Assembly: GCA_963719325.1 (NCBI GenBank)
Contig: CAVRBW010000024.1
Location: 16,968-80,967, forward strand
Reading direction: 5' to 3'
Length of the DNA stretch: 64,000 nucleotides
Origin: an uncultured Actinomycetes bacterium
Lineage (GTDB): Bacteria; Actinomycetota; Thermoleophilia; Gaiellales; Gaiellaceae
The position numbers were made by a program, and so were the translations under genes. The notes beneath the pieces are model-generated. The model made no database searches. It was not told the DNA's origin and saw nothing but the letters and a program-made list of their open reading frames with translations. Positions 28,520 through 55,040 of this stretch are shown one piece after another. Position 1 is the stretch's first letter. Every line of letters starts with the position of its first letter.

Positions 28520-29410
28520 TTAGCTGCACTTCTCGTACACGTCCTCCTGGCCGCCGACCCGCATGCCCGCGCTCTCGTAGAGCCGCACCGCTCCGGTCTC
28601 GTTGCCCGCGTCGACGCCGAGGCCGATCCGCCGCTTGGATTTTGCGTACAGCGCGCCGAACCCCTGCAGGAGCAGCGCCCGTCCGAGGCCCCGGCCGCGC
28701 CAGGCCGTTCGCACTCCGAGAATGCCGACGAACGCATCACCGAGGTAGTTCTCGTTGCAGACGACCGCGCCGGCGACGGCGTCTCCTTCTCGAGCGAGAA
28801 ACGTCACCTCGGGCTCGAGCAGCACGTTTCGGCGCCACTGGTCGAAGCCCTGGGGGACATGTCCCCAATGCTCCGCGAACGACTCTTCGACGACCTCGTG
28901 GAGAATGCGCTCCTCACCCTCGCGCAGACGAGCGGCGGTGATGCCCGCCGGCCACCGGGCCTGAGGCGGCGGGGCGGCGAGGTCGATGACCATCCGGTAG
29001 AAGCTGCGGACGTACGTGAATCCGCGCTCGACCACGAGCCGCCGGGCGGCGTCGTCGCCGGCCAGGGTCGAGACCCGGAAGATGCGGCCCCGTTTCCTGT
29101 GCGCCTCCCGTTCCGACCAGTCGAGCAGGAACGAGCCGATGCCGCGACCGGTCTCGCCGGGCAGCACCGCGCCGTCGCTCAACACCGCCTCGCCTCGAAA
29201 GACAATCCTCGTGCAGCCGACGATCTCGCCGGCGTCGTTGGTCACGACGATCGCCGCGATCGCCCGTTCGAGCCAGCGGCCCACCTCCAGCTCGCCGACC
29301 CGAACCGGCTCGGGAACGTACGCGGCTTCGCACGAGTTGACGACGGACGCAATCGCAGTGGCGTCGGTGCGCGTCACCGGGCGCGAGCTGTACCCCCGGG
29401 GCAGCGTCAC
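28520..29410 (-). CDS. two-domain GNAT N-acetyltransferase (MshD-like architecture)
   Basis: C-terminal ~296 aa of the 559-aa ORF. Two acetyl-CoA motifs: PGETGRGIGSFLL and RTAWRGRGLGRALL. GTG start overlaps the upstream HAD stop (GTGA). Confidence 0.65.
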   Translation of the reverse strand: MTLPRGYSSRPVTRTDATAIASVVNSCEAAYVPEPVRVGELEVGRWLERAIAAIVVTNDAGEIVGCTRIVFRGEAVLSDGAVLPGETGRGIGSFLLDWSEREAHRKRGRIFRVSTLAGDDAARRLVVERGFTYVRSFYRMVIDLAAPPPQARWPAGITAARLREGEERILHEVVEESFAEHWGHVPQGFDQWRRNVLLEPEVTFLAREGDAVAGAVVCNENYLGDAFVGILGVRTAWRGRGLGRALLLQGFGALYAKSKRRIGLGVDAGNETGAVRLYESAGMRVGGQEDVYEKCS

Positions 29411-30111
29411 TCCGGCACGAGCTCGTCCAGCACAGCCGGAAGCGACGTCAGGTCGGCGATCTCCCTGGTCGGCTCGGGTTCGGCGCGCTCGCCGAGGCGG
29501 TTCACCCACACCGACCGCAGCCCGAGCTCGCGGGTGGGCGCGACATCGTGGTACAAGCTCGCCGCCACGTGGACGTGGCGGTCCCGCTCGGCCCCCGTCT
29601 GAAGGAAGAACTCCTGCCAGTGGCGGTGCCGCGGCTTGTAGGAGCCGATTGCAGAAGCGACGATCGTCTCGTCGAACGTCACGCCCAGCCTTGCCTTCGA
29701 CGCTTCGATCAGGTCCGGATCCGTGTTCGAGAGGATCGCGAGCCGCCACCCGCGAGCGCGTGCCTCCTCGAGCGCCGCCGGCACCTCGGGAAACGGGGGC
29801 CAGTCGGGCAGAGAGCGTGCAAGCGCATCCGCCTCGCCGTGCGCGAGCCCGATGTCCTCCTCCGAGGCGAGCTGCTCGAGCGAGCGGCGCAACACCGAGC
29901 GGTAGGTCTGGTGCGGGTCCTCCGCTTGGACCTTCGGCTCGACGTCGTGGTAGCACTGCAGCAGCCGGTCGGCCGCGCCTGCGCCGAACAGCCGGGCCAG
30001 CTCGCCGCCGATCCCCCCGTTCCAGTCGATCAGCGTGCCGTAGCAGTCGAATGTCGCCCACCGCTTGAGCGTGGGGGAACCCAGGGTTCCCCCACGAGCC
30101 CCCACCTTCAC
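29407..30111 (-). CDS. HAD-superfamily hydrolase (haloacid dehalogenase type II-like)
   Basis: Motif I FDCYGTLIDW, ILSNTD, SYKP. The first ~15 codons lie inside palindromic repeat copy a, so the true start (GTG 30111, GTG 30105 or CTG 30083) is uncertain. Confidence 0.7.
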   Translation of the reverse strand: MKVGARGGTLGSPTLKRWATFDCYGTLIDWNGGIGGELARLFGAGAADRLLQCYHDVEPKVQAEDPHQTYRSVLRRSLEQLASEEDIGLAHGEADALARSLPDWPPFPEVPAALEEARARGWRLAILSNTDPDLIEASKARLGVTFDETIVASAIGSYKPRHRHWQEFFLQTGAERDRHVHVAASLYHDVAPTRELGLRSVWVNRLGERAEPEPTREIADLTSLPAVLDELVPE

Positions 30112-30216
30112 CGCGGCGCACCGCCTGCGTCACATGGGCTCCCGCCGGGCAAAGTTCGTCGGCAGCGTCGTCGGGCAAAGCTCGCCGACGCGCCACCACC
30201 GGGGGCCCGGCTCCGC
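30062..30216 (-). repeat. palindrome-terminated dispersed repeat, copy a
   Basis: Palindrome GTGGGGGAACCCAGGGTTCCCCCAC at 30071-30095. On the minus strand it is preceded by GGTGAAGGTGGGGGCTC, TTTGCCCGGCGGGAG and GGAGCCGGGCC blocks shared with copy b. Confidence 0.8.
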
Positions 30217-30243
30217 CCGAGAAAGGTTCGCGCTTCCAAGGGC

Positions 30244-31497
30244 CTACTCCTCGTACCGCTTGAGCACGATCGACGCGTTGTGGCCGCCGAACCCGAAGGA
30301 GTTCGACATTGCCACGCGTACGTCAGCGTGGCGCGCCTCGTTCGGGATGTAGTCCAGGTCGCACTCCGGGTCGGGCACCTCGTAGTTGATCGTCGGCGGC
30401 AACACACCGTCCACGATCGCCATGGTCGAGAAGATCGCTTCGACCGCGCCGGCGGCGCCGAGACAATGCCCGGTCGAGCCCTTCGTCGAGGAGATCGGCG
30501 TCTTCCTGGCGTTCTCCTCCCCGAACGCGAGCTTGATCACACGGGTCTCGCTCGCGTCGCCCAGTGGCGTCGAGGTTCCGTGAGCGTTCACGTAGTCCAC
30601 CTCCGACACGTCGATGCCGGCGTCGGTGAGTGCCATCTGCATCGCCCGCGCCGGGTTCACGCCCGTCGGGTCGGGTTCGGTGATGTGCTGTGCGTCCGAC
30701 GAGACGCCGTAGCCGGCCAGCTCCGCATAGATCTTCGCGCCGCGGGCCTTCGCCCGCTCGAGCTCCTCGAGGACGACCACCGCTCCGGCCTCCCCCATCA
30801 CGAATCCGTCCCGGCCGCTGTCGAACGGCCGGCTCGCGTGCTCGGGATCGTCGTTTCGCCGTGAGAGCGCACGCATAGCGCCGAACCCCGCGATTCCGAC
30901 CTCGGTGACCGGCGCCTCCGTTCCGCCGCAGAACATGACGTCGGCGCGGCCGAGCTTGATCGCGTCCGCACCCTCGCCGATTGCCATGTTCGAGGCGGCG
31001 CAAGCGGTGCACTGAGCGCTGAGCGGCCCCCGCGTCCCCAACTCGATCGAGACCCAGCCGGCGCCGAGGTTGGGGATGATCGCCGGGATCGAGAACGGAT
31101 TGACTCGATCCGGGCCGCGCTCGCGTAGCTGCGTGTGGCAGTCCTGGAACGACTGGAGGCCGCCGATACCCGTCGCGATCGACGCCCCCACGCGATCGGA
31201 CTCCTTGGCGATGTCGATGCCGCAGTCCTGCTCTGCCATTCGCGCGGCGGCAACGACCATCTGGGCGAAACGGTCCATCCGCCGGGCGGTCTTGTACTCG
31301 ATCCAGTCCGTCGGTTCGAAGTCCTTCAGCTCGCAGGCGAAGTTCACGAAGTACGCGCTCGAGTCGAACTGCGTGATCGGCCCTGCACCGGATTTTCCGG
31401 AAACGAGGTTCTGCCACGACGTCTGCACGTCGTTACCGAGCGGTGTAACCGCTCCCATCCCGGTGATGACGACTCTGCGGTGCCCGTCGGCGCTCAT
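30244..31497 (-). CDS. fabF: 3-oxoacyl-ACP synthase II
   Basis: 417 aa starting MSADGHRRVVITGMGAVTPLG. Active-site Cys context QCTACAASN; HGTSTPLGD and GHCLGAAG. The ATG shares one base with the fabG TAA (TAATG). Confidence 0.9.
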   Translation of the reverse strand: MSADGHRRVVITGMGAVTPLGNDVQTSWQNLVSGKSGAGPITQFDSSAYFVNFACELKDFEPTDWIEYKTARRMDRFAQMVVAAARMAEQDCGIDIAKESDRVGASIATGIGGLQSFQDCHTQLRERGPDRVNPFSIPAIIPNLGAGWVSIELGTRGPLSAQCTACAASNMAIGEGADAIKLGRADVMFCGGTEAPVTEVGIAGFGAMRALSRRNDDPEHASRPFDSGRDGFVMGEAGAVVVLEELERAKARGAKIYAELAGYGVSSDAQHITEPDPTGVNPARAMQMALTDAGIDVSEVDYVNAHGTSTPLGDASETRVIKLAFGEENARKTPISSTKGSTGHCLGAAGAVEAIFSTMAIVDGVLPPTINYEVPDPECDLDYIPNEARHADVRVAMSNSFGFGGHNASIVLKRYEE

Positions 31498-32234
31498 TAC
31501 ATTCCCAATCCTCCGTCGACGAGCAGCACCTCGCCGGTCACGAACGAGGCCTCGTCGGAGCAGAGGAAGCGTACCGCTCCCGCCACGTCCTCCGGCGTGC
31601 CGAGACGACCGAGCGGCGTGTTCCCGAGAATCGCCTGCTGGACCTCTCCGGGGAGCACGTCGGTCAGCGCAGTCTGGATGTAGCCCGGCGCGACCGCGTT
31701 CGCACGAACGCCGCGCGAGGCGAGCTCGCGGGCCAACGACTTCGTGAACCCGATGATCCCCGCCTTCGAGGCGGCGTAGTTCGTCTGCCCGGGGTTGCCG
31801 TGGATCCCGACGACGCTGGTCAGATTGACGATCGCGCCGCTCCGGCGACGCATCATCCCGCGGGCTGCGGCTCGGCAGGTGTGGAACACGCCTCCGAGGT
31901 TCGTGTCCAGCACGATCCGCCAATCCTGGTCGGACATCCGTGCGATCAGGCCGTCACGGGTCAAGCCTGCGTTGTTCACGAGGATGTCGAGCTCGCCGGC
32001 CTCATCGACCAGACGAGCGGCCTGCTCGGCATCGGAGACGTCGGCCTGCACCGCGCGACCGCCGATCGCTCCGACGAGTGCCTCTGCTTCCTCGGAACCG
32101 GTTCGGTACCCGATCACCACCTGCGCGCCGGCCCGTGCCAGCTCCGACGCGATCGCACGTCCGATGCCGCGCGAAGCACCGGTGACGAGCGCGAGCTTGC
32201 CCTCCAGCGAGCAGAACTCGCTCGAATCCCTCAC
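31497..32234 (-). CDS. fabG: 3-oxoacyl-ACP reductase
   Basis: SDR motifs LVTGASRGIG, NNAG and YAASKAG. GTG at 32234 gives a standard ~245-aa FabG; the ORF track extends to 32306. Confidence 0.85.
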   Translation of the reverse strand: MRDSSEFCSLEGKLALVTGASRGIGRAIASELARAGAQVVIGYRTGSEEAEALVGAIGGRAVQADVSDAEQAARLVDEAGELDILVNNAGLTRDGLIARMSDQDWRIVLDTNLGGVFHTCRAAARGMMRRRSGAIVNLTSVVGIHGNPGQTNYAASKAGIIGFTKSLARELASRGVRANAVAPGYIQTALTDVLPGEVQQAILGNTPLGRLGTPEDVAGAVRFLCSDEASFVTGEVLLVDGGLGM

Positions 32235-32283
32235 AGGCCAACCCCGCAGCTCACGCTGATTCCCGTCGCCGCGACCGACATGG

Positions 32284-32372
32284 CAGGCGCGGCTCCCAGC
32301 GGTCACTGAGGTGCGAACGGGTCAGAGGATGGGGCACACGGGGGAAACCGACCGTTTCCCCCGTGAAAGCGA
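32284..32372 (+). repeat. palindrome-terminated dispersed repeat, copy e
   Basis: CACGGGGGAAAC-CGACC-GTTTCCCCCGTG at 32337-32365, preceded by GCGAACGGGTCAGAGGATGGGG. That block aligns with the reverse complement of copies c and d. Sits in the fabD-fabG spacer. Confidence 0.75.
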
Positions 32373-32390
32373 GCCGGAGGCGAGCGCCTC

Positions 32391-33314
32391 TCACGTGGGC
32401 GCGATCGCTTCCTCGATCTTCTCGAGCGAGGCGAGGTCGTTGACGGAGATCGCCTTCACGCTGCGGTCGATGCGCTTGACGAGCCCGGAGAGGACGTTGC
32501 CCGGCCCCACCTCGACGAAGGTGCGCACGCCCTCCTTGACGAGCTCGGACGCAGCCTGCGTGAAACGTACGGGCGCCGTCAGCTGGTCGACGAGCAGCGC
32601 GGCCATTCGTTGCGCCTCCTCGAAGCGAGCGGTGACGGTCGACATGAACGCGGCCTCGGGCTCGCTGAACATCACGCGCTCGATCGCCGGCCGAAGCCGT
32701 TCCGCCGCCCGGGCGACGAGCGGCGAATGGAATGCACCCGAGACCTTCAGCTTGACCGTCCGCCGCGCGCCCTCCTCTTCAGCCAGCGCGCAGCACTCGT
32801 CCACGGCCTCGTTCTCGCCCGAGACGACGATCTGGCCGGGGCAGTTGTAGTTTGCCGGCCAGACTCCGATGATTCTCCGGCAGAGCCGCTCGACGACCTC
32901 GTCCTCGAGCCCGAGGATCGCCGCCATCGAGCCGGGTCGCACCCTCGCCGCTTCGGCCATCGCGAGCCCGCGCTCGCGCACGAGCGCGATCGTCTCTTCG
33001 ATGCCGACCGACTCCGCGGCCGCAAGTGCCGCAAACTCGCCGACCGAGTGCCCGATCACGTAGTTGGGCTCGATCCCACGCCGGCGCAGCGCCGCAAGGA
33101 CGGCGAGGCTCGTGGCGACGAGCGCCGGCTGCTGGATCTCCGTCCCGACCATCTCCTCGAGTGGGGTCTCGAAGCAGAGCTTGCGGAGATCCAGACCGCT
33201 CGCCTCGCTTCCCCGGTCGAACACCGCCATCGCCTCGGGCACCGCCTCGGCGATGTCACGGCCCATGCCACGCGCGAGCGCGCCTTGACCCGGGAAGCAG
33301 AACGCAATCTTCAT
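32391..33314 (-). CDS. fabD: malonyl-CoA-ACP transacylase
   Basis: FPGQGA, GHSVGEFAAL, and SGAFHSPL. Start MKIAFCF; its ATG overlaps the fabH stop. Confidence 0.9.
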   Translation of the reverse strand: MKIAFCFPGQGALARGMGRDIAEAVPEAMAVFDRGSEASGLDLRKLCFETPLEEMVGTEIQQPALVATSLAVLAALRRRGIEPNYVIGHSVGEFAALAAAESVGIEETIALVRERGLAMAEAARVRPGSMAAILGLEDEVVERLCRRIIGVWPANYNCPGQIVVSGENEAVDECCALAEEEGARRTVKLKVSGAFHSPLVARAAERLRPAIERVMFSEPEAAFMSTVTARFEEAQRMAALLVDQLTAPVRFTQAASELVKEGVRTFVEVGPGNVLSGLVKRIDRSVKAISVNDLASLEKIEEAIAPT

Positions 33315-34318
33315 CACGCCTCCGTCCATTGCAGTAGCGCCGACCCCCAAGTCAGTCCCGCCCCCATGCCGGTCATCAGCACGGTGTCCCCACGGTGGAT
33401 TCGCCCTTCCGCGACTGCGTCTGCCAGGGCGAGCGGGATCGACGCAGACGAGGTGTTCCCGTATCGGTCGACGTTCATGACGACGCGGTCCTCCGGGATC
33501 CCGAGTTTGGTAACGGCATGATCGATAATCCTGACATTTGCCTGGTGGGGAACGTAGACATCTACGTCGTCCACCGAAAGATCACATTCTGCAAGCACGT
33601 TCTGCGCAGAGCTGACGAGCACGCGCGTCGCGAACCTGAACACCTGCCGGCCGTTCATATGCACATAGTGCTGGCCGGTGGCGACGGTCTCGGCGCTCGC
33701 CGGCATGCGTGACCCGCCTGCCGGGATCAGCAGATCGACTCCGCCCGCCCCGTCGACTCCGAGCTCGAAGCCGAGAAAGCCGCGCTCCTCGACGCGTTCG
33801 ACGACGACTGCCCCCGCTCCGTCGCCGAAGAGCACGCACGTCGAGCGGTCTGTGAAGTCCATCACCTTGGAGAGCACGTCACCCCCGACGACGAGCGACC
33901 GGCTGACCAAGCCGCTCGAGACCATGCTGAACGCCTGAGCCAAGCCGTACATGAACCCCGTGCAGCCGGCCGCGAGGTCGAATGCGCCGGCCTCGCCGGC
34001 GCCTAGCTGGTCGGCGAGAATCGCCGCCGTCGACGGAAACGCCATGTCGGGCGTAACCGTCGCGACGATGATCAGGTCGAGATCGCTCCCCCGCATCCCG
34101 GCCCGCTCGAGCGCTGACCGCGAAGCGGGCAGCGCAAGTTCCGAGAGCGCTTCGCCAGGCGCGGCAAACCGCCGCTCGCGAATCCCGGTGCGCGCTCGAA
34201 TCCACTCGTCCGAGGTGTCGACCATCTGGGCGAGTTCCTCGTTCGTGACTACCCGCTCCGGCACATGGCAACCCAGGCCGGTAATCGACACGGAGACTCC
34301 GTTTGCTCTTCCGATCAT
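33314..34318 (-). CDS. fabH: 3-oxoacyl-ACP synthase III
   Basis: TSDEWIRARTGIRERR, active-site AAGCTGF, HQANVRI, and GNTSSASIP. Confidence 0.9.
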   Translation of the reverse strand: MIGRANGVSVSITGLGCHVPERVVTNEELAQMVDTSDEWIRARTGIRERRFAAPGEALSELALPASRSALERAGMRGSDLDLIIVATVTPDMAFPSTAAILADQLGAGEAGAFDLAAGCTGFMYGLAQAFSMVSSGLVSRSLVVGGDVLSKVMDFTDRSTCVLFGDGAGAVVVERVEERGFLGFELGVDGAGGVDLLIPAGGSRMPASAETVATGQHYVHMNGRQVFRFATRVLVSSAQNVLAECDLSVDDVDVYVPHQANVRIIDHAVTKLGIPEDRVVMNVDRYGNTSSASIPLALADAVAEGRIHRGDTVLMTGMGAGLTWGSALLQWTEA

Positions 34319-34758
34319 GCGGCCGCCGTCGCGAACGTCAGCGTGCCCCGAACCGCCAGGTCGTCGCCGACGCGAGCGACCGCCTTGCCCTTGCCGATCG
34401 GTCCGCGTGCGGTCTCGAGCTCGCAGAAGAGCGTGAGCTCGTCACCGGGCTCGACGAGCCGCTTGAAACGAACGCCGTCGATGCCGGCGAACAGGGCGAG
34501 CTTGCCGCGGTTCTCCTCGAGCGAGAGCGCCGCGATCGCGCCTGCCTGTGCCAGCGCCTCGACCATGATCACACCGGGCATGATCGGACGGCCCGGGAAG
34601 TGACCCGGAAAGAACCACTCGTCTCCGCGAACGTGCTTGCGGGCGACCACGCGTGCGCCGGGCTCGAGCTCGAGCACCTCGTCGAGGAAGAGAAACGGGT
34701 CGCGGTGGGGAATGATCGTCTCGATCACGTCTCGCCCGAACGGCGCAGCGAGGGTCAC
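34315..34758 (-). CDS. fabZ: 3-hydroxyacyl-ACP dehydratase
   Basis: IPHRDPFLFLD, FFPGHFPGRPIMPGV, EALAQ. GTG start overlaps the sigma-factor stop (GTGA). About 147 aa. Confidence 0.85.
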   Translation of the reverse strand: MTLAAPFGRDVIETIIPHRDPFLFLDEVLELEPGARVVARKHVRGDEWFFPGHFPGRPIMPGVIMVEALAQAGAIAALSLEENRGKLALFAGIDGVRFKRLVEPGDELTLFCELETARGPIGKGKAVARVGDDLAVRGTLTFATAAA

Positions 34759-35354
34759 CCTGCGAGTCGATCTCGAAGGGACCGGCGCGCGCGGTGCGCG
34801 TAGCACTTGGCCGTTCCGACCGGGATGCCTGCAGTCGAGGCGATCTCTGGGAACGACCACTCGAACGCATCCTTGAGCACGACCACGCGTGCCTGTTGCG
34901 TGGAGAGCGTGCCGAGCCGGGACGAGAGCTCCGAGCGCAATTCGGACAGCTCGAGGGCCCGGACCGGATCTCCGTCCGCGGCAACACGGCGATCCTCGAG
35001 GAGCGGCTCGAACCGCCGCGACCGCTGTCTCGTCGCCACGTCGTGGCACGTGTTCACCACGAGTCGGTGAAGCCACGTCGAGAACTGCGCCTCCCCCCGA
35101 AACTGCCGGATCCGAACACACAGCTTCGCCAGCGAGTCCTGGGCCGCGTCCCGCGCGTCCTCGGAGTCGGCCAGGAGATGGGACGCGAGACGCTCGACCC
35201 GCGGAGCGTGCCGTTCACAAAGCGCCGCCAGCGCGTCGGGGTCTCCGTTCTTCGCTCTCGTCACCAGGATCGGGTCGCTCAGCTTCGCGTATTCGAGCGG
35301 CCGTGCCGGCCGCAACTCGATCTTCTGACGGCGTGCGCGCCCAAGCGGTTGCAC
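34755..35354 (-). CDS. ECF-type sigma-70 family RNA polymerase sigma factor
   Basis: 199 aa. Region 2 is DAAQDSLAKL...FRGEAQFSTWLHRLVVN. Region 4 HTH is LKDAFEWSFPEIASTAGIPVGTAKCYAHRARRSL. Confidence 0.8.
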   Translation of the reverse strand: MQPLGRARRQKIELRPARPLEYAKLSDPILVTRAKNGDPDALAALCERHAPRVERLASHLLADSEDARDAAQDSLAKLCVRIRQFRGEAQFSTWLHRLVVNTCHDVATRQRSRRFEPLLEDRRVAADGDPVRALELSELRSELSSRLGTLSTQQARVVVLKDAFEWSFPEIASTAGIPVGTAKCYAHRARRSLRDRLAG

Positions 35355-35375
35355 CCTGCGAGTCTAGTCGGGCGG

Positions 35376-37271
35376 TCAGCGCTGAACCGTGAACGCAACG
35401 GCGTGGCGCGTCTCGCCAAACGGGCCCCTGGCGAGCGCCACCGCCTCGTAGGCGCCGTCGAGCGCAGGGCCGGCGGGCGCCGATCCGTCCCAGGAGACTT
35501 GGCCCGCGCCCGCCGGCAGCTGACCGGCGAAGACGGTCGCGACCACCGTCCCGGCCTGCTCGATCTGAACCGTGACGTCGGCCGGTGCCGCGAGCGCGAA
35601 CCCGATCCCGAGCAGGTCGTCGGTACCGTCGCCGTTGGGCGTCAGCGCGACCGTCGACAGCGTCAGCCCGGACAGCGTCCGGTCGATGGAGAGTGACGCC
35701 GTCGCCTGCGCCGACCGGCCGTCCTGTCCGGCGGCGGCGACCGTCAACACGTACGCACCGTCCGGAAGGCCTTCCGCCGCATACGGGAAGGATTGGCGCC
35801 GAGCGGATTGCAGCTGATCCGCAAACAGGGTGGCAACCACGGCGCCGCTCGCATCGGTCACCGTCGCCGTCACAGCCGCTTTCGTCGACAGCGTGTACGA
35901 GATCGTCGTCGCGTCGGCGATTCCGTCGCCGTCGGGAGAGAGCACCGCAGGATCGACGACGAGCCCGGAGAGGAGCGCGGCCGGTGGCGGAATCGGAGCC
36001 GCCGAATCGATTGTTCCCTGCGCAGGCCGAGTCTCCGAACCGGCTTCGATCGTCCACGTGTAGGAGCCCGGCGCAACGCCGGTCGAGCTCCACGTCCACG
36101 TAACCGCCCGGCCGCTGCCCGCTCCCCGTGCGACCACCTGACCGGACGAGCTTCGTACGCTCACCGTCCAGGCGTGCGCGGCAGAGAGCCGCGCGGTGAA
36201 CGCGACCGGCCCGCCGAGCGACCCCCGAACCTGCGGCGCATACAACTTCGGCAGCCCGATCGACGCCGCCTCACGGGCCAGATCGGGCAACCTCGCATAC
36301 AGGGACGCCCCCGGACAGCTCGTAAAGCCCGTGTCTCGATGGCCGGAGATCGCGCGCAGACGCGCCGGAGTTCCGCGCGAGAACTTCGCGTTTCCGCCGG
36401 ACGTCCACGTAACGAGTCCGAGCGGGTCGACGTGCGCGACGTCGAGCCGCCAGGCAAGCAGCTTCGCGAGCGCATGCTGGGCAGCCGGCGAGATCGGCGC
36501 CGAGGAGTAGTTCCCGATCACCGCCACGCCCACCGAGCCGGTGTTGAAGCCCTCCGCGTGCGCCCCGATCACATTCCGATCGATCCCACCGGCACGCCCT
36601 TCGAAGACCTGGCCGTACCGATCGACGAGAAAGTTGTAGCCGATGTCGTTCCAGCCGTTTCCACGCACGTGGTAGAGCTCGATCCCGCGTACGATCGCGG
36701 CCGACGCTCCGGGACCGTAGTTCGCCGAGCCGGCCGTGTGATGGACGACGGCGAAGGACACCGCCTTCGCATAGCGCGGGCGGCCCCGCAGGATCTCCTC
36801 GTCGGCCCTCCACCCCGTGCGCGAGACGATTTGCGGGGCCGCAGCCGCTGCCGTCGTCCGCACCGGCCCGGCGCCGACCGGGCTCCATACGTACCAGACC
36901 CTGACCCTATGTACGTCCCCGATCAGCCGGTACCCGATCCGGTCCGACGGCCCAACCCAGTACGGATTGCCGAGCCGCCACCCTCGGCGCGTGCGGGCTT
37001 CGGCCGTCCGCGTGTCGGGCAGATCCTCGGCCTCGGGGGCGACCTGCCGCCATGCACTCCAGCGCCCGACCCGGCTGCGGGTGCGGAAGAGGACGCGGCC
37101 CGAGCCCTGCCAGTGGAATCCGACCAGATCGAAGCGCGCCGGCGAGGTCGCCGCAGCCGTCGTGCGCGTAACGCCGATCGGGAGGTCCTGCGAGACGATG
37201 GTCGCGTCGCCCGCCCGGGCTACCCCGGGGAGCGCAACGAGCAGGAACAGGGCGACGCGGAGCATTCTCAT
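35376..37271 (-). CDS. secreted N-acetylmuramoyl-L-alanine amidase (Amidase_2/PGRP domain) with two C-terminal FlgD-Ig-like repeats
   Basis: Signal peptide MRMLRVALFLLVALPGVARA. Amidase_2 pattern VVHHTAG...WNDIGYNFLVDRYGQVFEGR...GAHAEGFN. Repeats contain SPDGDGIAD and TPNGDGTDD. Confidence 0.8.
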   Translation of the reverse strand: MRMLRVALFLLVALPGVARAGDATIVSQDLPIGVTRTTAAATSPARFDLVGFHWQGSGRVLFRTRSRVGRWSAWRQVAPEAEDLPDTRTAEARTRRGWRLGNPYWVGPSDRIGYRLIGDVHRVRVWYVWSPVGAGPVRTTAAAAAPQIVSRTGWRADEEILRGRPRYAKAVSFAVVHHTAGSANYGPGASAAIVRGIELYHVRGNGWNDIGYNFLVDRYGQVFEGRAGGIDRNVIGAHAEGFNTGSVGVAVIGNYSSAPISPAAQHALAKLLAWRLDVAHVDPLGLVTWTSGGNAKFSRGTPARLRAISGHRDTGFTSCPGASLYARLPDLAREAASIGLPKLYAPQVRGSLGGPVAFTARLSAAHAWTVSVRSSSGQVVARGAGSGRAVTWTWSSTGVAPGSYTWTIEAGSETRPAQGTIDSAAPIPPPAALLSGLVVDPAVLSPDGDGIADATTISYTLSTKAAVTATVTDASGAVVATLFADQLQSARRQSFPYAAEGLPDGAYVLTVAAAGQDGRSAQATASLSIDRTLSGLTLSTVALTPNGDGTDDLLGIGFALAAPADVTVQIEQAGTVVATVFAGQLPAGAGQVSWDGSAPAGPALDGAYEAVALARGPFGETRHAVAFTVQR

Positions 37272-37341
37272 CCTCGAGTCCTCGGCAAGTGTGCCCACCC
37301 GCTCAGGCGTCGGCCTGAGCATTGATAGAATCCTTACGACT

Positions 37342-38646
37342 GTGAAACCCGCTCTCCTGCGGGCCTTTCTCGCCTCGCTGGCCGTGATCGCAGCGATCCT
37401 CTCTATTGGGGGATCTGCCTCGGCGGCAGCGCCGCGCGTCCTCGTCGTTCAGTTCGACAACGACATCAACCCGGTGACGGCCGACTTTCTGAACGACGAG
37501 ATCAATCGCGCGAACAAGGGCAACTACGCGGCAATCGTGATCGAGTTCGACACGCCAGGCGGGCTCGTCGACTCGATGAACAAGATCGTGAAGAAGGAGC
37601 TCGGCTCGAAGGTTCCCGTGATCGTCTACATCGCTCCGGAAGGAGCAGGCGCGGGCTCGGCGGGGGTCTTCATCTCCGAGGCGGCGGACGTCCTGGCGAT
37701 GGCGCCGCAGACGACCATCGGCGCGGCGACCCCGATCACCGGCAGCGGCAACTTGCCGTCAGACCTGCGCCGAAAGGAGATCAACTTCTACGCCAGCAAG
37801 GCGAGGAGCCTCGCGGCGACGCACGGACGGAACGGGACGTGGGCAGACGCCGCCGTTCGCCGAGCGTCGAGCCGAACCGCAAACGAGGCGGTGAGCCAGA
37901 ACATTGCCGACCTCCAGGCCTTGACGCTCCCCGAGTTGCTGACGAAGATCGACGGCCGCAAGACGATTCCGAAGGGCCTGGTCCTGCACACAGCGGGCGC
38001 GGAGATCACCACCGTGAAGATGGGGTTCTGGAAACGCCTGCTCGACACGCTGATCGACCCGAACCTGATCGCGTTGATGCTGACGCTCGGCGTCCTCGGA
38101 ATCATCGTCGAGCTCTGGCACCCGGGCCTGATCTTCCCCGCGACGTTCGGCGTCCTCTGCCTGGCGATCGCGTTCTTCGGCCTCGACGTCCTGCCGATCA
38201 GCTGGGCAGGCCTGCTGCTCATCGCCGCGGCTTTTGTGTTCTGGATCGTCGAACTCTTCATCGCGTTCAGCCATGGTGCGTTGACCGTCGCAGGCGCAGC
38301 CTGCTTCGTCTTCGGCTCGCTGCTTCTGTTCGAACCGGCCGGTTCCGGCTACCAAGTCTCCCTCTCGCTCTCGTTGAGCGTCGCCGGCGTGGTCTCGCTC
38401 TTCTTCGCCTTCGCGCTCGCGAAGGTGGTGCAGATCCGCCGTCGGCCGGCCTCGGTGGGGACGCACATGATCATCGGCGCCCACGGCCAGGTCCGGCGCG
38501 ACGGCCTCGTCGCCGTCCGGGGCGAGCTCTGGCAGGCTCGCGACGAGGACGGGGGAGACCTCGAGCTCGGGGAAGAGATCGAGGTTGTGCGAGTCGAGGG
38601 CCTCTCTCTGGTCGTCCGCCAGGTCCAGACCCCCGCGCACGTCTAG
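37342..38646 (+). CDS. NfeD-family membrane-bound ClpP-class serine protease
   Basis: From GTG 37342: signal/TM, then IEFDTPGGLVDSM, GAGSAGVFI, several TM helices, and a C-terminal OB-like NfeD tail (GELWQARDEDG). Confidence 0.8.
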   Translation: MKPALLRAFLASLAVIAAILSIGGSASAAAPRVLVVQFDNDINPVTADFLNDEINRANKGNYAAIVIEFDTPGGLVDSMNKIVKKELGSKVPVIVYIAPEGAGAGSAGVFISEAADVLAMAPQTTIGAATPITGSGNLPSDLRRKEINFYASKARSLAATHGRNGTWADAAVRRASSRTANEAVSQNIADLQALTLPELLTKIDGRKTIPKGLVLHTAGAEITTVKMGFWKRLLDTLIDPNLIALMLTLGVLGIIVELWHPGLIFPATFGVLCLAIAFFGLDVLPISWAGLLLIAAAFVFWIVELFIAFSHGALTVAGAACFVFGSLLLFEPAGSGYQVSLSLSLSVAGVVSLFFAFALAKVVQIRRRPASVGTHMIIGAHGQVRRDGLVAVRGELWQARDEDGGDLELGEEIEVVRVEGLSLVVRQVQTPAHV

Positions 38647-38811
38647 ATGGTTGACCGGCAATTCCTCGCTACGCGGCTGGTGGCTGAGACGCGGCGCCGG
38701 CTGGCGCCGCCCGCCCTCACCCGTATTCCCGATACGACCTCGGACGAGCGGCGTCTCCGGCTTGGTCTCAGCCATCTCCGCGTCAGCGTCAATTACCGAT
38801 CAACCATCTAG
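38643..38811. repeat. long-range inverted repeat spanning the nfeD-stomatin spacer
   Basis: CTAGATGGTTGA(C)CGG at 38643-38658 pairs with CCG(A)TCAACCATCTAG at 38796-38811 (15 of 16). Nested second pair: GGCTGAGAC (~38681) and GTCTCAGCC (~38765). Confidence 0.6.
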
Positions 38812-38823
38812 GATGGGAGCACC

Positions 38824-39609
38824 GTGACTGCAGCCGTCGTCGTCATCGTCGTCGTCGTCGTCCTCCTCCTCCTGTTCACGCTGGCCGCCGTGAAGGTGGC
38901 GCGGGAGTACGAACGCGGAATCGTCTTTCGTCTCGGGCGGCTCCTCCCGGCACCGAAAGGCCCTGGTCTCTTCCTGCTGATCCCGATCATCGACCGGATG
39001 GTGAAGGTCGATCTGCGGACGATCACGCTGAACATCCCGCCGCAGGAGGTGATCACGAAGGACAACGTCCCCGCGCGGGTGAACGCGGTCGCCTACTTCC
39101 GGATCGTCGACCCGAACGCGGCGATCGTCCAGATCGAGAACTTCATGGTCGCGACCTCGCAGATCGCCCAGACGACGCTTCGTTCGGTGCTCGGGCAGCA
39201 CCTGCTGGACGAGCTGCTCTCGGAGCGCGACAAGATCAACACGATTCTTCAGGGGATCATCGACGAGGCGACCTCGCCCTGGGGGATCAAGGTCTCGATC
39301 GTCGAGGTCAAGGATGTCGAGATCCCGTCCGGGATGCAGCGGGCGATGGCCCGGCAGGCCGAAGCCGAGCGCGAGCGCCGCGCGAAGGTGATCAACGCGG
39401 AGGGCGAGTACCAGGCTTCCGAGCGGTTGAAGGACGCGGCGCTCGTGATCGAGGAGCATCCGATCGCGCTCCAGCTCCGCTACCTGCAGACGCTGCTCGA
39501 GCTCGGTTCCTCGCAGGCGACGACGATCGTCTTCCCGGCGCCGATCGACCTGATCACGCCGTTCCTCGAGCGCGCCACCAAGCCGGGTTCGAACACCGCG
39601 AGCTCGTAG
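38824..39609 (+). CDS. SPFH/band-7 (stomatin-like) protein
   Basis: N-terminal TM, then [13 protein letters not shown]..., [10 protein letters not shown], and a coiled [20 protein letters not shown] segment. Forms the classic NfeD-stomatin gene pair. Confidence 0.85.
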
Positions 39610-39694
39610 CCGCCCTTCGCGGTTCCCCGGATGCGTGGGATGCGTGAAGAGGTGGCAGCTTCTTTCGGCTCTCGGGGCGCTGCGCGCGGCCGCC

Positions 39695-39797
39695 GGAGCC
39701 GGGCCTTGCCCGGCGGGAGGCTTGCTGCGGCAGGAGGATCGCTGCGACGGAGGAGGGGGTTCGTGGGGGAACCATGGGTTCCCCCACGCTGAGGCGC
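39695..39797 (+). repeat. palindrome-terminated dispersed repeat, copy b
   Basis: GTGGGGGAACCATGGGTTCCCCCAC at 39763-39787, preceded by GGAGGAGGGGGTTC, TTGCCCGGCGGGAGG and GGAGCCGGGCC. Confidence 0.8.
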
Positions 39798-40646
39798 GAC
39801 CCGCTCTCGGGTCGACTCGTCGCGATCGCCCCCGGCCGCGCAAGCCGTCCGGGGACGGCAGACGCCGCGCTGATCGAGCCGGCGGCCGAGGGCGAGTTGG
39901 AGGAGTGCCCGTTTTGCGCCGGGCACGAGGAGCGCACGCCTCCCGAGGTCCTGCGGATCGGCGACCCCTGGCAAGTGCGAGTCGTCCCGAATCTGTATCC
40001 GGCGGTCGAGCGCCAGGAGGTGGTCATCCATTCGCCTCGCCACGTGCGCTCGTTTGCCGAGTTGACCGACGGCGAGGTCGAGGCGGTCGCGAGCGCCTGG
40101 CACCAGCTTGCCACTCGAGCTGCCGGAACCGAGTGGACCTATCTCCACGTCCTGATCAACGAGGGACGGGCGGCCGGCAGCAGCCTGCCGCACTCGCATT
40201 CGCAGGTCGTGTATCTCCGGGAGCCGCCGCCGGCCGCGACCGCCGAACGTCACGGTCCCGGGTGTCCGGTCTGCGAGGTCGTGGCCGCCGCCCGGCCCGG
40301 CCTGGAGCTCGCCCAGGACAACGGGGCAGTTGCGGTCGTGCACCCCGCCGGACGGCTGCCGTACGAAGCTCTGATCGCCGGCCCGCACCCGGATCTCGAC
40401 CTCGCCGCCGCTCTACGGATTCTCCGAGGCTGCGTGCGGGCTCTGCAAACGATCGAAGGACCTGTGGCCTGGAACACCTGGCTGCACAACGCCTGGCAAG
40501 GGCTCGACCACCCCGACGTCCACCCGCACATCGAGTGGGTGCCGCGATTGACGGTGATGGCCGGCCTGGAGCTCGGAGCCGAGATCTACGTCAACACGCT
40601 GCCGCCGGAAGAAGCCGCTGCGCGACTCCGCAACGCCTGGAGCTAG
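39774..40646 (+). CDS. GalT-like (HIT superfamily) hexose-1-phosphate nucleotidyltransferase
   Basis: RRDPLSGRLVAIAPGRASRP, CPFCAGHE, and catalytic SLPHSHSQV. The ATG sits in the centre of palindromic repeat copy b. Confidence 0.7.
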   Translation: MGSPTLRRDPLSGRLVAIAPGRASRPGTADAALIEPAAEGELEECPFCAGHEERTPPEVLRIGDPWQVRVVPNLYPAVERQEVVIHSPRHVRSFAELTDGEVEAVASAWHQLATRAAGTEWTYLHVLINEGRAAGSSLPHSHSQVVYLREPPPAATAERHGPGCPVCEVVAAARPGLELAQDNGAVAVVHPAGRLPYEALIAGPHPDLDLAAALRILRGCVRALQTIEGPVAWNTWLHNAWQGLDHPDVHPHIEWVPRLTVMAGLELGAEIYVNTLPPEEAAARLRNAWS

Positions 40647-53413: not shown

Positions 53414-54169
53414 GTGGCCGGACGGGTCTATGCAGTCGCGAACCAGAAGGGCGGAGTCGGGAAGACCACGACCGCCGTCAATCTCGCCGCGTGCCTGGCC
53501 GAGGCCGGTCAGCGGGCGCTTGTCATCGATCTCGATCCTCAGGCGAACGCCACCTCGGGACTCGGCATGCGCGCGAACGGCACGTCCAGCTACGACCTCC
53601 TGGACGGCGTTCCGCTGGGCGAGCTGGCGAAGCCGACCCGGTTTCAGAACCTCTGGCTGGTGCCCTCGAAGCCCGATCTGGCCGGTGCGGCGGTGGAGCT
53701 CGCGCGACGGGACGACGGCGAGCGCTTCCTCGCCGAATCGCTGGTCGGCGCGGGCGAACAGTACGACTTCGCCTTTCTCGACTGTCCGCCGTCGCTCGGC
53801 CCGCTGACGGTGAATGCGCTCGCGGCCGCCGACCGCGTGCTGGTTCCCGTCCAGGCCGAGTACTACGCGCTCGAGGGGCTGTCGCAGCTGCTTCGGTCGG
53901 TCGACATCATCAAGGCGCGCCTGAACCCGCGGCTTGCGATCGCGGGCGTGCTGCTGACGATGGTCGACGGCCGCACCCGCCTTTCCGCAGATGTCGACGC
54001 CGAGCTCCGCCGGCACCTCGGTGAGCTGGTCTTCGAGACCGTCGTCCCACGGTCGGTTCGCCTCGCGGAGGCGCCGAGCCACGGTCTCCCCGCAATCGCC
54101 TACGACCGCCGTTCGGCGGGCGCCGAGGCCTACTGGAAGGTGGCGATGGAGCTTGTCGAGCGTCCCTGA
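53414..54169 (+). CDS. parA: chromosome partitioning ATPase ParA/Soj
   Basis: Deviant Walker A NQKGGVGKTTT and DLDPQANAT. 251 aa. Confidence 0.9.
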   Translation: MAGRVYAVANQKGGVGKTTTAVNLAACLAEAGQRALVIDLDPQANATSGLGMRANGTSSYDLLDGVPLGELAKPTRFQNLWLVPSKPDLAGAAVELARRDDGERFLAESLVGAGEQYDFAFLDCPPSLGPLTVNALAAADRVLVPVQAEYYALEGLSQLLRSVDIIKARLNPRLAIAGVLLTMVDGRTRLSADVDAELRRHLGELVFETVVPRSVRLAEAPSHGLPAIAYDRRSAGAEAYWKVAMELVERP

Positions 54170-55040
54170 TCGAAACGGCCGCCGCGGCCTCGGCCGCGGC
54201 CTTGAAGTCCTGATGGGCGGTGCGCCGGAGTCGGAGCTCGCGCAGTTGCCGGTGGAGACCATCCATCCGAACCCCCGTCAGCCGCGCAGGCGGCACGACT
54301 CCGAGGCGGCAGTCGGACTGGCCGACTCCGTCCGTGCTCAGGGCGTGATCCAGCCCGTCGTCGTCCGGCCGCGTCGGGCAGGCGGCTGGGAGCTGATCGC
54401 CGGCGAGCGGCGCTGGCGGGCTGCACGTGATGCAGGGCTGGCGAATGTGCCGGCGCTCGTGCGGGAGGCCGACGACCGCGACTCGCTCCTGCTCGCGCTC
54501 GTCGAGAACGTCGCCCGCGAGCAGCTCTCGGCACCGGAAGAGGCGCGCGCGTACGCGCTGCTGATCGACGAGTTCGGCCTGTCGCTGGGTGAAGTGTCCG
54601 AGCGAGTCGGACGGTCGAAGCCGGCAGTGTCGAACCGAATGCGCCTGCTCGAGCTCCCCGACGACGTGCTCGCGATGGTCGAGCGCGGCGAGCTGAGCGA
54701 AGGTCATGCCCGTGCGGTGCTCGCGGTCCCGGATCAGGACGGCCGCCGCCGGCTTGCTCGTGAGATCGTCAAGACCGGGATGTCCGTTCGGGCGGCCGAG
54801 CAGAAGGCACGCTGGGCCGGTGCCAAGCAGAAGCCGCGCCGCGCCGGTGCGCCGGTCGATCCGGCCTTGGCCGCACGCGTTCGGCTCGCCGCCGAGCGGC
54901 TCACCGGCCTCCCCGTCCGGCTGACGCGCGGTCGACTCGAGGTCCTGTTCGCGGACGACTACGAGCTTGCGGAGCTGGCCGAAGCACTCGAGCTTGCATG
55001 GGGGAAACGGTCGGTTTCCCCCATGGACCCCCTTCCCTGA
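54153..55040 (+). CDS. parB: chromosome partitioning protein ParB/Spo0J
   Basis: GLGRGLEVL, ParB box GERRWRAA, and HTH GLSLGEVSERVGRSKPAVSNRMRLL. TTG 54153 chosen. The last ~13 codons (WGKRSVSPMDPLP) are encoded by palindromic repeat copy c. Confidence 0.85.
   Translation: MSSVPDRNGRRGLGRGLEVLMGGAPESELAQLPVETIHPNPRQPRRRHDSEAAVGLADSVRAQGVIQPVVVRPRRAGGWELIAGERRWRAARDAGLANVPALVREADDRDSLLLALVENVAREQLSAPEEARAYALLIDEFGLSLGEVSERVGRSKPAVSNRMRLLELPDDVLAMVERGELSEGHARAVLAVPDQDGRRRLAREIVKTGMSVRAAEQKARWAGAKQKPRRAGAPVDPALAARVRLAAERLTGLPVRLTRGRLEVLFADDYELAELAEALELAWGKRSVSPMDPLP

Follow-up and report, generated by a model that had tools for sequence, protein, structure and literature searches.

We analysed a 64,000-nucleotide window (the whole stretch of DNA considered here; contig CAVRBW010000024.1 of assembly GCA_963719325.1) from an uncultured soil bacterium of the Gaiellaceae, in which two copies of a palindromic repeat stand at the 5′ ends of a HAD-superfamily hydrolase gene and a GalT-like gene. 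The palindrome, GGGGGAACC-NNN-GGTTCCCCC, matches twice in the window, against 0.00 matches expected from shuffled sequence. A first-pass annotation had placed an ATG at the centre of one copy (copy b, plus strand) and a CTG at the centre of the other (copy a, minus strand), and had proposed that the repeat supplies the start region and first residues of both genes. The palindromes and their centres are present as it described, and its central claim holds: ahead of the conserved residues of either protein, canonical in-frame starts are found inside the repeat and nowhere else.

Copy b spans positions 39687–39790 on the plus strand. Whole-genome BLAST coverage rises at 39687 and drops after 39790, and the copy aligns with others of one module type (M2), ending ...CCCCCACGCT. 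Within it lie an internal module hairpin, CCGGGC-CTT-GCCCGG (39699–39713), which has GGAG boxes on either side, is kept among M2 copies and appears in the centroid fold; a Shine–Dalgarno (SD)-like purine block, GGAGGAGGGGG (39749–39759), 15–25 nt before the loop ATG; and a terminal 12-bp hairpin (39762–39788), the stem of which covaries among copies and the arms of which, CGTGGGGGAACC (39762–39773) and GGTTCCCCCACG (39777–39788), enclose the ATG at 39774–39776. The GalT-like gene (galactose-1-phosphate uridylyltransferase family/DUF4921; 39774–40646, plus strand) has no other canonical in-frame start than this ATG ahead of its conserved residues, and the open reading frame (ORF) from this ATG translates as MGSPTLRRDPLSGR.... 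A nine-codon mini-ORF, GTG...TGA (39763–39792, plus strand), as read from the sequence, also spans the hairpin, and its stop overlaps a CTG at 39789–39791 in the GalT frame. Upstream lies an SPFH/Band-7 gene (38824–39609, plus strand; Pfam), the stop of which overlaps or abuts the GalT start in relatives.

Copy a, likewise of M2 type, occupies 30068–30215 on the minus strand, as delimited by BLAST coverage and by comparison with intact copies at the same locus in relatives G024, G016 and G002 (G numbers denote genomes, G000 being the present one, and L numbers denote loci). Its terminal 12-bp hairpin (30070–30096, minus strand) reads CGTGGGGGAACC-CAG-GGTTCCCCCACG on the plus strand, and its CTG loop is in the HAD frame at 30084–30082, one base away from where the first-pass annotation had put it; the stem, given there as 11–12 bp, is 12 bp long. 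The annotation had also reported a G-rich block in both copies, which is intact in copy b only. In copy a the block reads GAAGGTGGGGG (30109–30099), where GGTGG breaks the GGAGG core, and this change created an in-frame GTG. The sole canonical start candidates of the HAD gene (29407–30111, minus strand; motif I FDCYGTL; Pfam and translation) are GTG 30111–30109 and GTG 30105–30103, both within this degenerate purine block (30103–30111, minus strand); none lies between the repeat and catalytic motif I, and the ORF through the loop reads ...GGT(L)GSPTLKRWATFDCYGTL. The upstream neighbour is a fabF-like β-ketoacyl synthase gene (30244–31497, minus strand; Pfam), which in relatives without the repeat stops 0–12 nt before the HAD start. 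The module hairpin of copy a also holds, within its loop, an extra repeated module (9 genome matches; about 30161–30205, minus strand), with a partial duplication of TTTGCCCG. This nested module is missing from the same-locus copies in G024, G016 and G002.

Both copies belong to an abundant family. The assembly searched comprises 2.77 Mb in 29 contigs, at 69% G+C and 88% completeness. At up to one mismatch the palindrome has 80 matches in it (0 for the reversed control) and at up to two mismatches 95 copies; a looser hairpin pattern yields 139 matches, against 2 for its control. Of these 139, 125 lie outside predicted genes, even though our own crude codon-based gene caller, whose start calls are likewise crude, assigns 89% of the genome to coding sequence. 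Aligned genome copies share an oriented flank, and the palindrome is thus the terminal hairpin of a longer repeat of ~100–150 nt. Its layout runs, in order, through a GGAG-boxed module hairpin, a linker, the consensus purine block AAGGAGGGGG, 3–5 nt and the 12-bp stem with its 3-nt loop, to the end ACGCT. At least three module types occur among the copies: M1, GGCGAGACCGCGCTCTCGCC; M2, CCGGGCTTTGCCCGG; and M3, mostly with a GGCC-loop hairpin. Among 61 copies with a 3-nt loop, read with the purine block first, the loop triplet is ACG in 22, ATG in 15, CTG in 8 and AGG in 7, and three base pairs at the stem foot covary (T-A 30 vs C-G 18; G-C 40 vs A-T 6).

The hairpin was found in all 24 congeneric genomes searched, with 2–70 matches each, and in some other families of the same order, being absent from others searched. 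Metagenome-assembled genomes (MAGs) of Gaiellaceae/Gaiellales hold more than 120 copies with an SD and an ATG loop. Rfam 15 gave no match for the two window copies or for two M1-type copies, permissive scans returning chance-level hits only; at the gathering threshold, tRNA alone passes in the window. Literature searches found no paper on the family, which seems to be an undescribed, abundant, oriented, non-coding, dispersed repeat of Gaiellaceae. One subfamily, with a GGCC loop and the M3 module (GCCGCGACCGACATGGCGGGCGCGGC), has an opposite-strand gene stop at +41 and the next gene start at −114 to −120, and bridges co-directional gene junctions at these fixed distances in ~12 unrelated operons (examples in this genome: C6:72771, C13:18304, C14:47763, C17:38796 and C18:56544).

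The hairpin end is characteristically flush with ORF boundaries, mostly the stop of an incoming gene and less often the start of an outgoing one. In 26 of the 61 copies (~43%) an opposite-strand gene stops at +13 to +20 from the loop, right at the stem foot, and the junction T|AGCGT frequently creates the TAG stop of that convergent gene. Several other copies have a same-strand start at +12 to +20, for example ...ACGCTGATG, ...ACGATG or ...ACGCTAGTG. Among the ATG-loop copies of the wider sample, the neighbour is a convergent stop in 38 cases and a same-strand gene in 25; in 10 the distance is greater.

Orthologous junctions with and without the repeat reveal what stood at these gene starts. 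The order SPFH–GalT is conserved across the order. In G024, whose GalT protein is 79% identical and whose locus lacks the repeat, the junction reads ...GGA GTGA ACGAGCTCAGACGCGAC, with the GTG overlapping the TGA and an N-terminus of MNELRRDP. Two other relatives without the repeat begin MGRLRRDP (G011, with the junction TAG-ctgc-GTG) and MGELRLD (G038). Aligned with such loci (alignment A2), the present genome carries an insert of ~180 nt directly ahead of the Leu codon of LRRDP. It has no in-frame ATG, GTG or TTG between the upstream stop and 39774, and the next is at codon 41. The segment LRRDPLSGRLVAIAPGRA.RPG is conserved as protein across species despite differing third codon positions, which indicates that it is translated; given this and the lack of another canonical start, M-G-S-P-T comes from the repeat loop and 3′ arm. 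The predicted GalT N-terminus would thus join a repeat-derived MGSPT to an ancestral RR, with the Leu from either source. An exact-protein look-up of the GalT product returned no record. GalT orthologues in several relatives have no ATG, GTG or TTG near the conserved N-terminus, G036 and G032 having ATAG (L014 and L015), and these missing starts suggest near-cognate starts used through termination–reinitiation coupling in this operon.

At the HAD locus, where the order fabF–HAD is also conserved, relatives without the repeat (G009, G022, G007, G017, G019, G014, G006, G015 and G013) start 0–12 nt past the fabF stop and encode M-[S/G/A/E/P]-[D/E]-RWATFD. Such a short N-terminus, with no hairpin, occurs in 72 of 78 orthologues across Thermoleophilia in which the motif was found, and 10 of the 20 HAD loci sampled at genus level lack the repeat and begin in this way. 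Starts in orthologues without the repeat thus lie within a few bases of the upstream stop, and their N-termini are short and different. The first-pass annotation had named the presence of the peptide GSPTL[KR]R in such orthologues as evidence that would count against its reading. These orthologues lack GSPT, and GSPT(L) is repeat-encoded; the [KR]R that follows is ancestral, corresponding to RW in HAD and RR in GalT.

Species that carry the repeat at the HAD locus have different starts available. A loop ATG is in frame in G002 (MGSPTLERWATFD), G001, G008 and L056 (variant stem GGGGGAAAC/GTTTCCCCC); an ATG or GTG stands at the 3′ foot of the stem in G024 (MPRWATFD) and G011; a TTG lies just past the hairpin in G004 and G010; and G016, like the present genome, has only an NTG directly ahead of AAGGAGGGGG. 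An NTG at the first position (equivalent to 30111) is common to G000, G024, G016, G001 and G002, which mildly favours GTG 30111 as the HAD start, although these copies may simply share ancestry. Stem pairing holds in 97.5% of cells across ten copies from this locus, and three pairs show compensatory changes. In G008 (L031) the copy has shrunk to a decayed hairpin, GCGGGAACC-ATG-AGTTCTCCC, with no purine block, 20 nt past the fabF stop. Its loop ATG is still in frame; the stem may erode once the loop codon serves as a start.

We consider it probable, at roughly 75%, that the terminal hairpin of a dispersed repeat took the place of the ancestral start at tight operon junctions and that both genes co-opted starts from it. 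This reading builds on observed features: both copies are members of the family, both sit at junctions, no other canonical starts are available and N-termini differ where the repeat is missing. In the proposed course of events, insertion into the very tight fabF–HAD and SPFH–GalT-like junctions would have put the repeat in the place of the ancestral start codon and first 2–3 codons of each gene, and with those starts replaced both genes would have had to adopt start codons inside the repeat. For GalT the candidate would be the loop ATG at 39774, its sole canonical option; for HAD it would be GTG 30111 or 30105, the loop CTG being less likely. The residues (M)GSPT(L) would be a plain translation of the 3′ arm of the hairpin, and the N-terminal peptides expected are MGSPTLRR... 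or (M)KVGARGGTLGSPTLKR.... We infer occasional co-option after insertion, not a function of the repeat.

Several points weigh against this reading. The GalT genes of G001 and G018 lack a canonical start and have CTGA only, the CTG overlapping the SPFH stop (locus position ~1490 in L007/L008) and giving (L)SELRRDP, and near-cognate codons are candidate starts in the present genome as well (CTG 39789 for GalT; CTG 30084 or an ACG for HAD). Gene calls came from our home-made caller. In the HAD protein tree, which is poorly resolved, repeat-bearing species do not form one clade and the presence of the repeat needs at least two changes; one old insertion with later losses is thus indistinguishable from repeated insertions, and the compensatory stem changes may reflect different source copies rather than evolution in place. 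Mobility is suggested by copy number and by filled versus empty orthologous sites, and the usual marks of transposition were not found: no target-site duplication (TSD) is visible in 31 M1-type copies; there are no terminal inverted repeats (TIRs), the left end T[GC][AT]TGG[AT]G[GA]AC... not being an inverted copy of the right end; and no transposase is linked, the three PF01797 (Y1 transposase) matches, at 26–33 bits, having no family hairpin within 3 kb.

The first-pass annotation had read the element as a portable SD and start-codon cassette whose hairpin could gate initiation, for example by temperature. Several observations favour this proposal: the purine block belongs to the repeat consensus, ATG is the second commonest loop triplet (15 of 61), the loop ATG is in frame at GalT here, at HAD in four other species and probably at a phosphoglycerate-mutase-like gene in L228, and the hairpin is intact in most start-hosting copies. 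A dedicated cassette is nonetheless very unlikely. ACG is the commonest loop triplet, and many copies (26 of 61 here, 38 of 63 in the wider sample) adjoin a convergent stop, a position that calls for no start. Across Gaiellaceae, 76 of the 86 copies with an SD and an ATG loop open no coding frame; the 10 that open a coding-like one amount to ~12%, and about half of these have a better-placed SD and start farther downstream (in the genus sample, 10 of 30 ATG-loop copies open a coding frame). Genome-wide, GGAGG spacing peaks 4–10 nt before starts, even with crude start calls, whereas the GGAGG of the repeat lies 17 nt from the loop ATG; copy a, moreover, has a CTG loop and a broken SD. Stability argues in the same direction, with the hairpin alone folding at −23.3 kcal/mol at 37 °C, −15.4 at 60 °C and −8.6 at 80 °C and an arm pairing probability in copy b above 0.93 up to 80 °C. 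A stem this stable at 80 °C would not sense physiological temperature, and an RNA thermometer was rejected after folding at 15–95 °C gave no melting in the physiological range; temperature gating of initiation is unlikely. So stable a hairpin would be expected to hinder direct initiation until a helicase or a translating ribosome opens it. The cassette-and-gating mechanism would be a minority by-product at best, and a start cassette is not what the repeat family generally does.

An opening ribosome is what coupling like that of MIRUs (mycobacterial interspersed repetitive units) would provide at the GalT copy: ribosomes loaded on the repeat SD would start at GTG 39763, open the hairpin while translating the nine-codon mini-ORF, stop at TGA 39790–39792 and re-initiate on CTG 39789 or, 16 nt back, on ATG 39774. 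The GGAGG lies 6 nt before this GTG, at the 5′ foot of the stem, which is ideal spacing; the mini-ORF has exactly nine codons, with its TGA at +16; copies at C1:24530, C17:60736 and C17:59812 end ACGCTGATG or ACGCTAGTG, their mini-ORF stop overlapping the start of the next gene; G001 and G018 have CTGA at the ancestral junction; and MIRUs have been described with start-codon insertion and a coupled internal ORF (PMC12548453). Against these points, the start codon at −11 is a mere stem-base consensus, present in 20 of 25 copies upstream of genes versus 33 of 38 at convergent stops (p=0.5, Gaiellaceae); a weak excess in this genome (19 of 29 vs 12 of 32) was not replicated in the wider sample, where an in-frame stop at +16 is also uncommon; and the scheme is inapplicable to the HAD copy, whose mini-ORF has 21 codons in another frame. 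We regard it as distinctly unlikely for GalT, and coupling through the mini-ORF as a selected feature of the family was rejected, the weak own-genome signal not being replicated across Gaiellaceae. A broader proposal would make the family a mobile ‘junction adaptor’ that persists even where operon junctions are tightest, with end stops on both strands (T|AGCGT giving TAG), its own SD, a hairpin-unwinding short ORF and starts in the loop and at the stem base, GalT and HAD being translated only once an upstream ribosome or helicase opens the hairpin. We regard this as unlikely; if true, a means of coupling or gating would be built into the repeat and transferable with it. Highly improbable, finally, is that the arrangement is an artefact of annotation, the repeat being a mere 5′ leader of genes that either begin past it or are pseudogenes in decay. 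The expected inhibition of initiation by the hairpin would fit such a leader, as would the lack of promoter-like or other signals: scans of either copy found no sigma-70-like promoter site, no canonical terminator-like site coincides, and no TANNNT motif (leaderless or internal promoter) precedes the candidate starts on inspection of the sequence. Yet the next canonical GalT start, at codon 41, would lose the conserved LRRDPLSGRLVAIAPGRA.RPG, no canonical start lies between the repeat and motif I of HAD, and each ORF has its full length and a coding score.

Behaviour of this kind has parallels in known bacterial repeat families. On the features tested, the Gaiellaceae repeat belongs to none of the REP/RAYT, classical MITE, MIRU or Rfam families. 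Like REP, BIME and REPIN elements, it is a high-copy, extragenic, GC-rich palindrome often found just past stops (a palindrome of 27 nt in 95–139 copies, with 125 of the 139 located outside predicted genes), and the genome has RAYT-like genes. REPs situated no more than ~15 nt from a stop codon reportedly affect translation termination (Liang, Rudd and Deutscher 2015, Mol Cell). Unlike REPs, the Gaiellaceae unit is longer and oriented, with a non-palindromic body, and the 3 kb around the Y1-transposase genes contain no hairpin of the family. Two RAYT-like ORFs (HYHLV... motif; PF01797, 26–33 bits) lie at C16:118749–119327 and C29:12346–12792. Like IS200/IS605-derived, PATE- or MITE-like elements, the repeat has neither TIRs nor target duplication, carries a hairpin close to each end and abuts a short conserved flank on one side; it differs in that neither TnpA nor TnpB was found linked to it, and the assembly yielded no member of the TnpB zinc-ribbon family. 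Its size falls within the MITE range (50–500 nt, non-coding, many dispersed copies), and it shows none of the TIRs or TSDs of a MITE derived from a DDE transposon.

Rickettsia palindromic elements (RPE) are palindromic dispersed repeats that are translated as part of host proteins. They lie in frame inside ORFs and yield internal peptides, whereas the Gaiellaceae repeat lies at the extreme 5′ end, contributing the start codon and 4–5 residues, or at the 3′ end in a ParB-like ORF. MIRUs have been described as elements that insert at start codons in operons and carry an internal ORF coupled to the downstream gene, and expression survives (PMC12548453). Both are small actinobacterial repeats in operon junctions, and one Gaiellaceae copy has an SD-led mini-ORF ending on the start region of the next gene. 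As compared by description, MIRUs are 40–100-bp units, often in tandem, whereas the Gaiellaceae repeats are single, 100–150 nt long and end in a perfect 12-bp hairpin, include the gene's own start codon and are inconsistent in their coupled mini-ORF. A repeat search found no tandem array of 40–100-bp units at either window locus, and an internal ORF overlapping both the flanking stop and start between co-directional genes occurs in copy b and a few others, without enrichment in the wider sample. The modular BOX element of Streptococcus pneumoniae has a boxC module that encodes the start codon of expressed ORFs leaving the element (PMC3049150). BOX ORFs are new and hypothetical and have no good SD, whereas here conserved enzymes with known orthologues rely on the repeat.

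Elsewhere in the window, a ParB-like ORF (53991–55040) crosses a related hairpin at 55000–55024 (GGGGGAAACGGTCGGTTTCCCCC) and ends ...LAWGKRSVSPMDPLP*, a member of the repeat superfamily enclosing its last residues and stop; another member lies beyond the tRNA-Ile. The nfeD–SPFH spacer (38644–38811) holds an unrelated repeat of ~170 nt with 16–17 full-length genome copies, TIRs (ATGGTTGACCGG...CCGATCAACCAT) and a flanking CTAG on each side, the left one including the nfeD stop. This repeat looks like a classical MITE with TIRs and duplication, in which case both junctions of the three-gene nfeD–SPFH–GalT operon hold small repeats.

With empty-site relatives as controls, these loci indicate that a high-copy repeat can overwrite the starts of conserved enzymes in a compact, GC-rich genome, and that species settle on different replacement starts, in the loop, at the stem base or upstream. 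In Gaiellaceae MAGs this will systematically affect how start sites and N-termini are annotated, through MGSP... N-termini and repeat-encoded C-termini. GalT and HAD are natural test cases for how ribosomes cope when the start codon is enclosed by a 12-bp GC stem.

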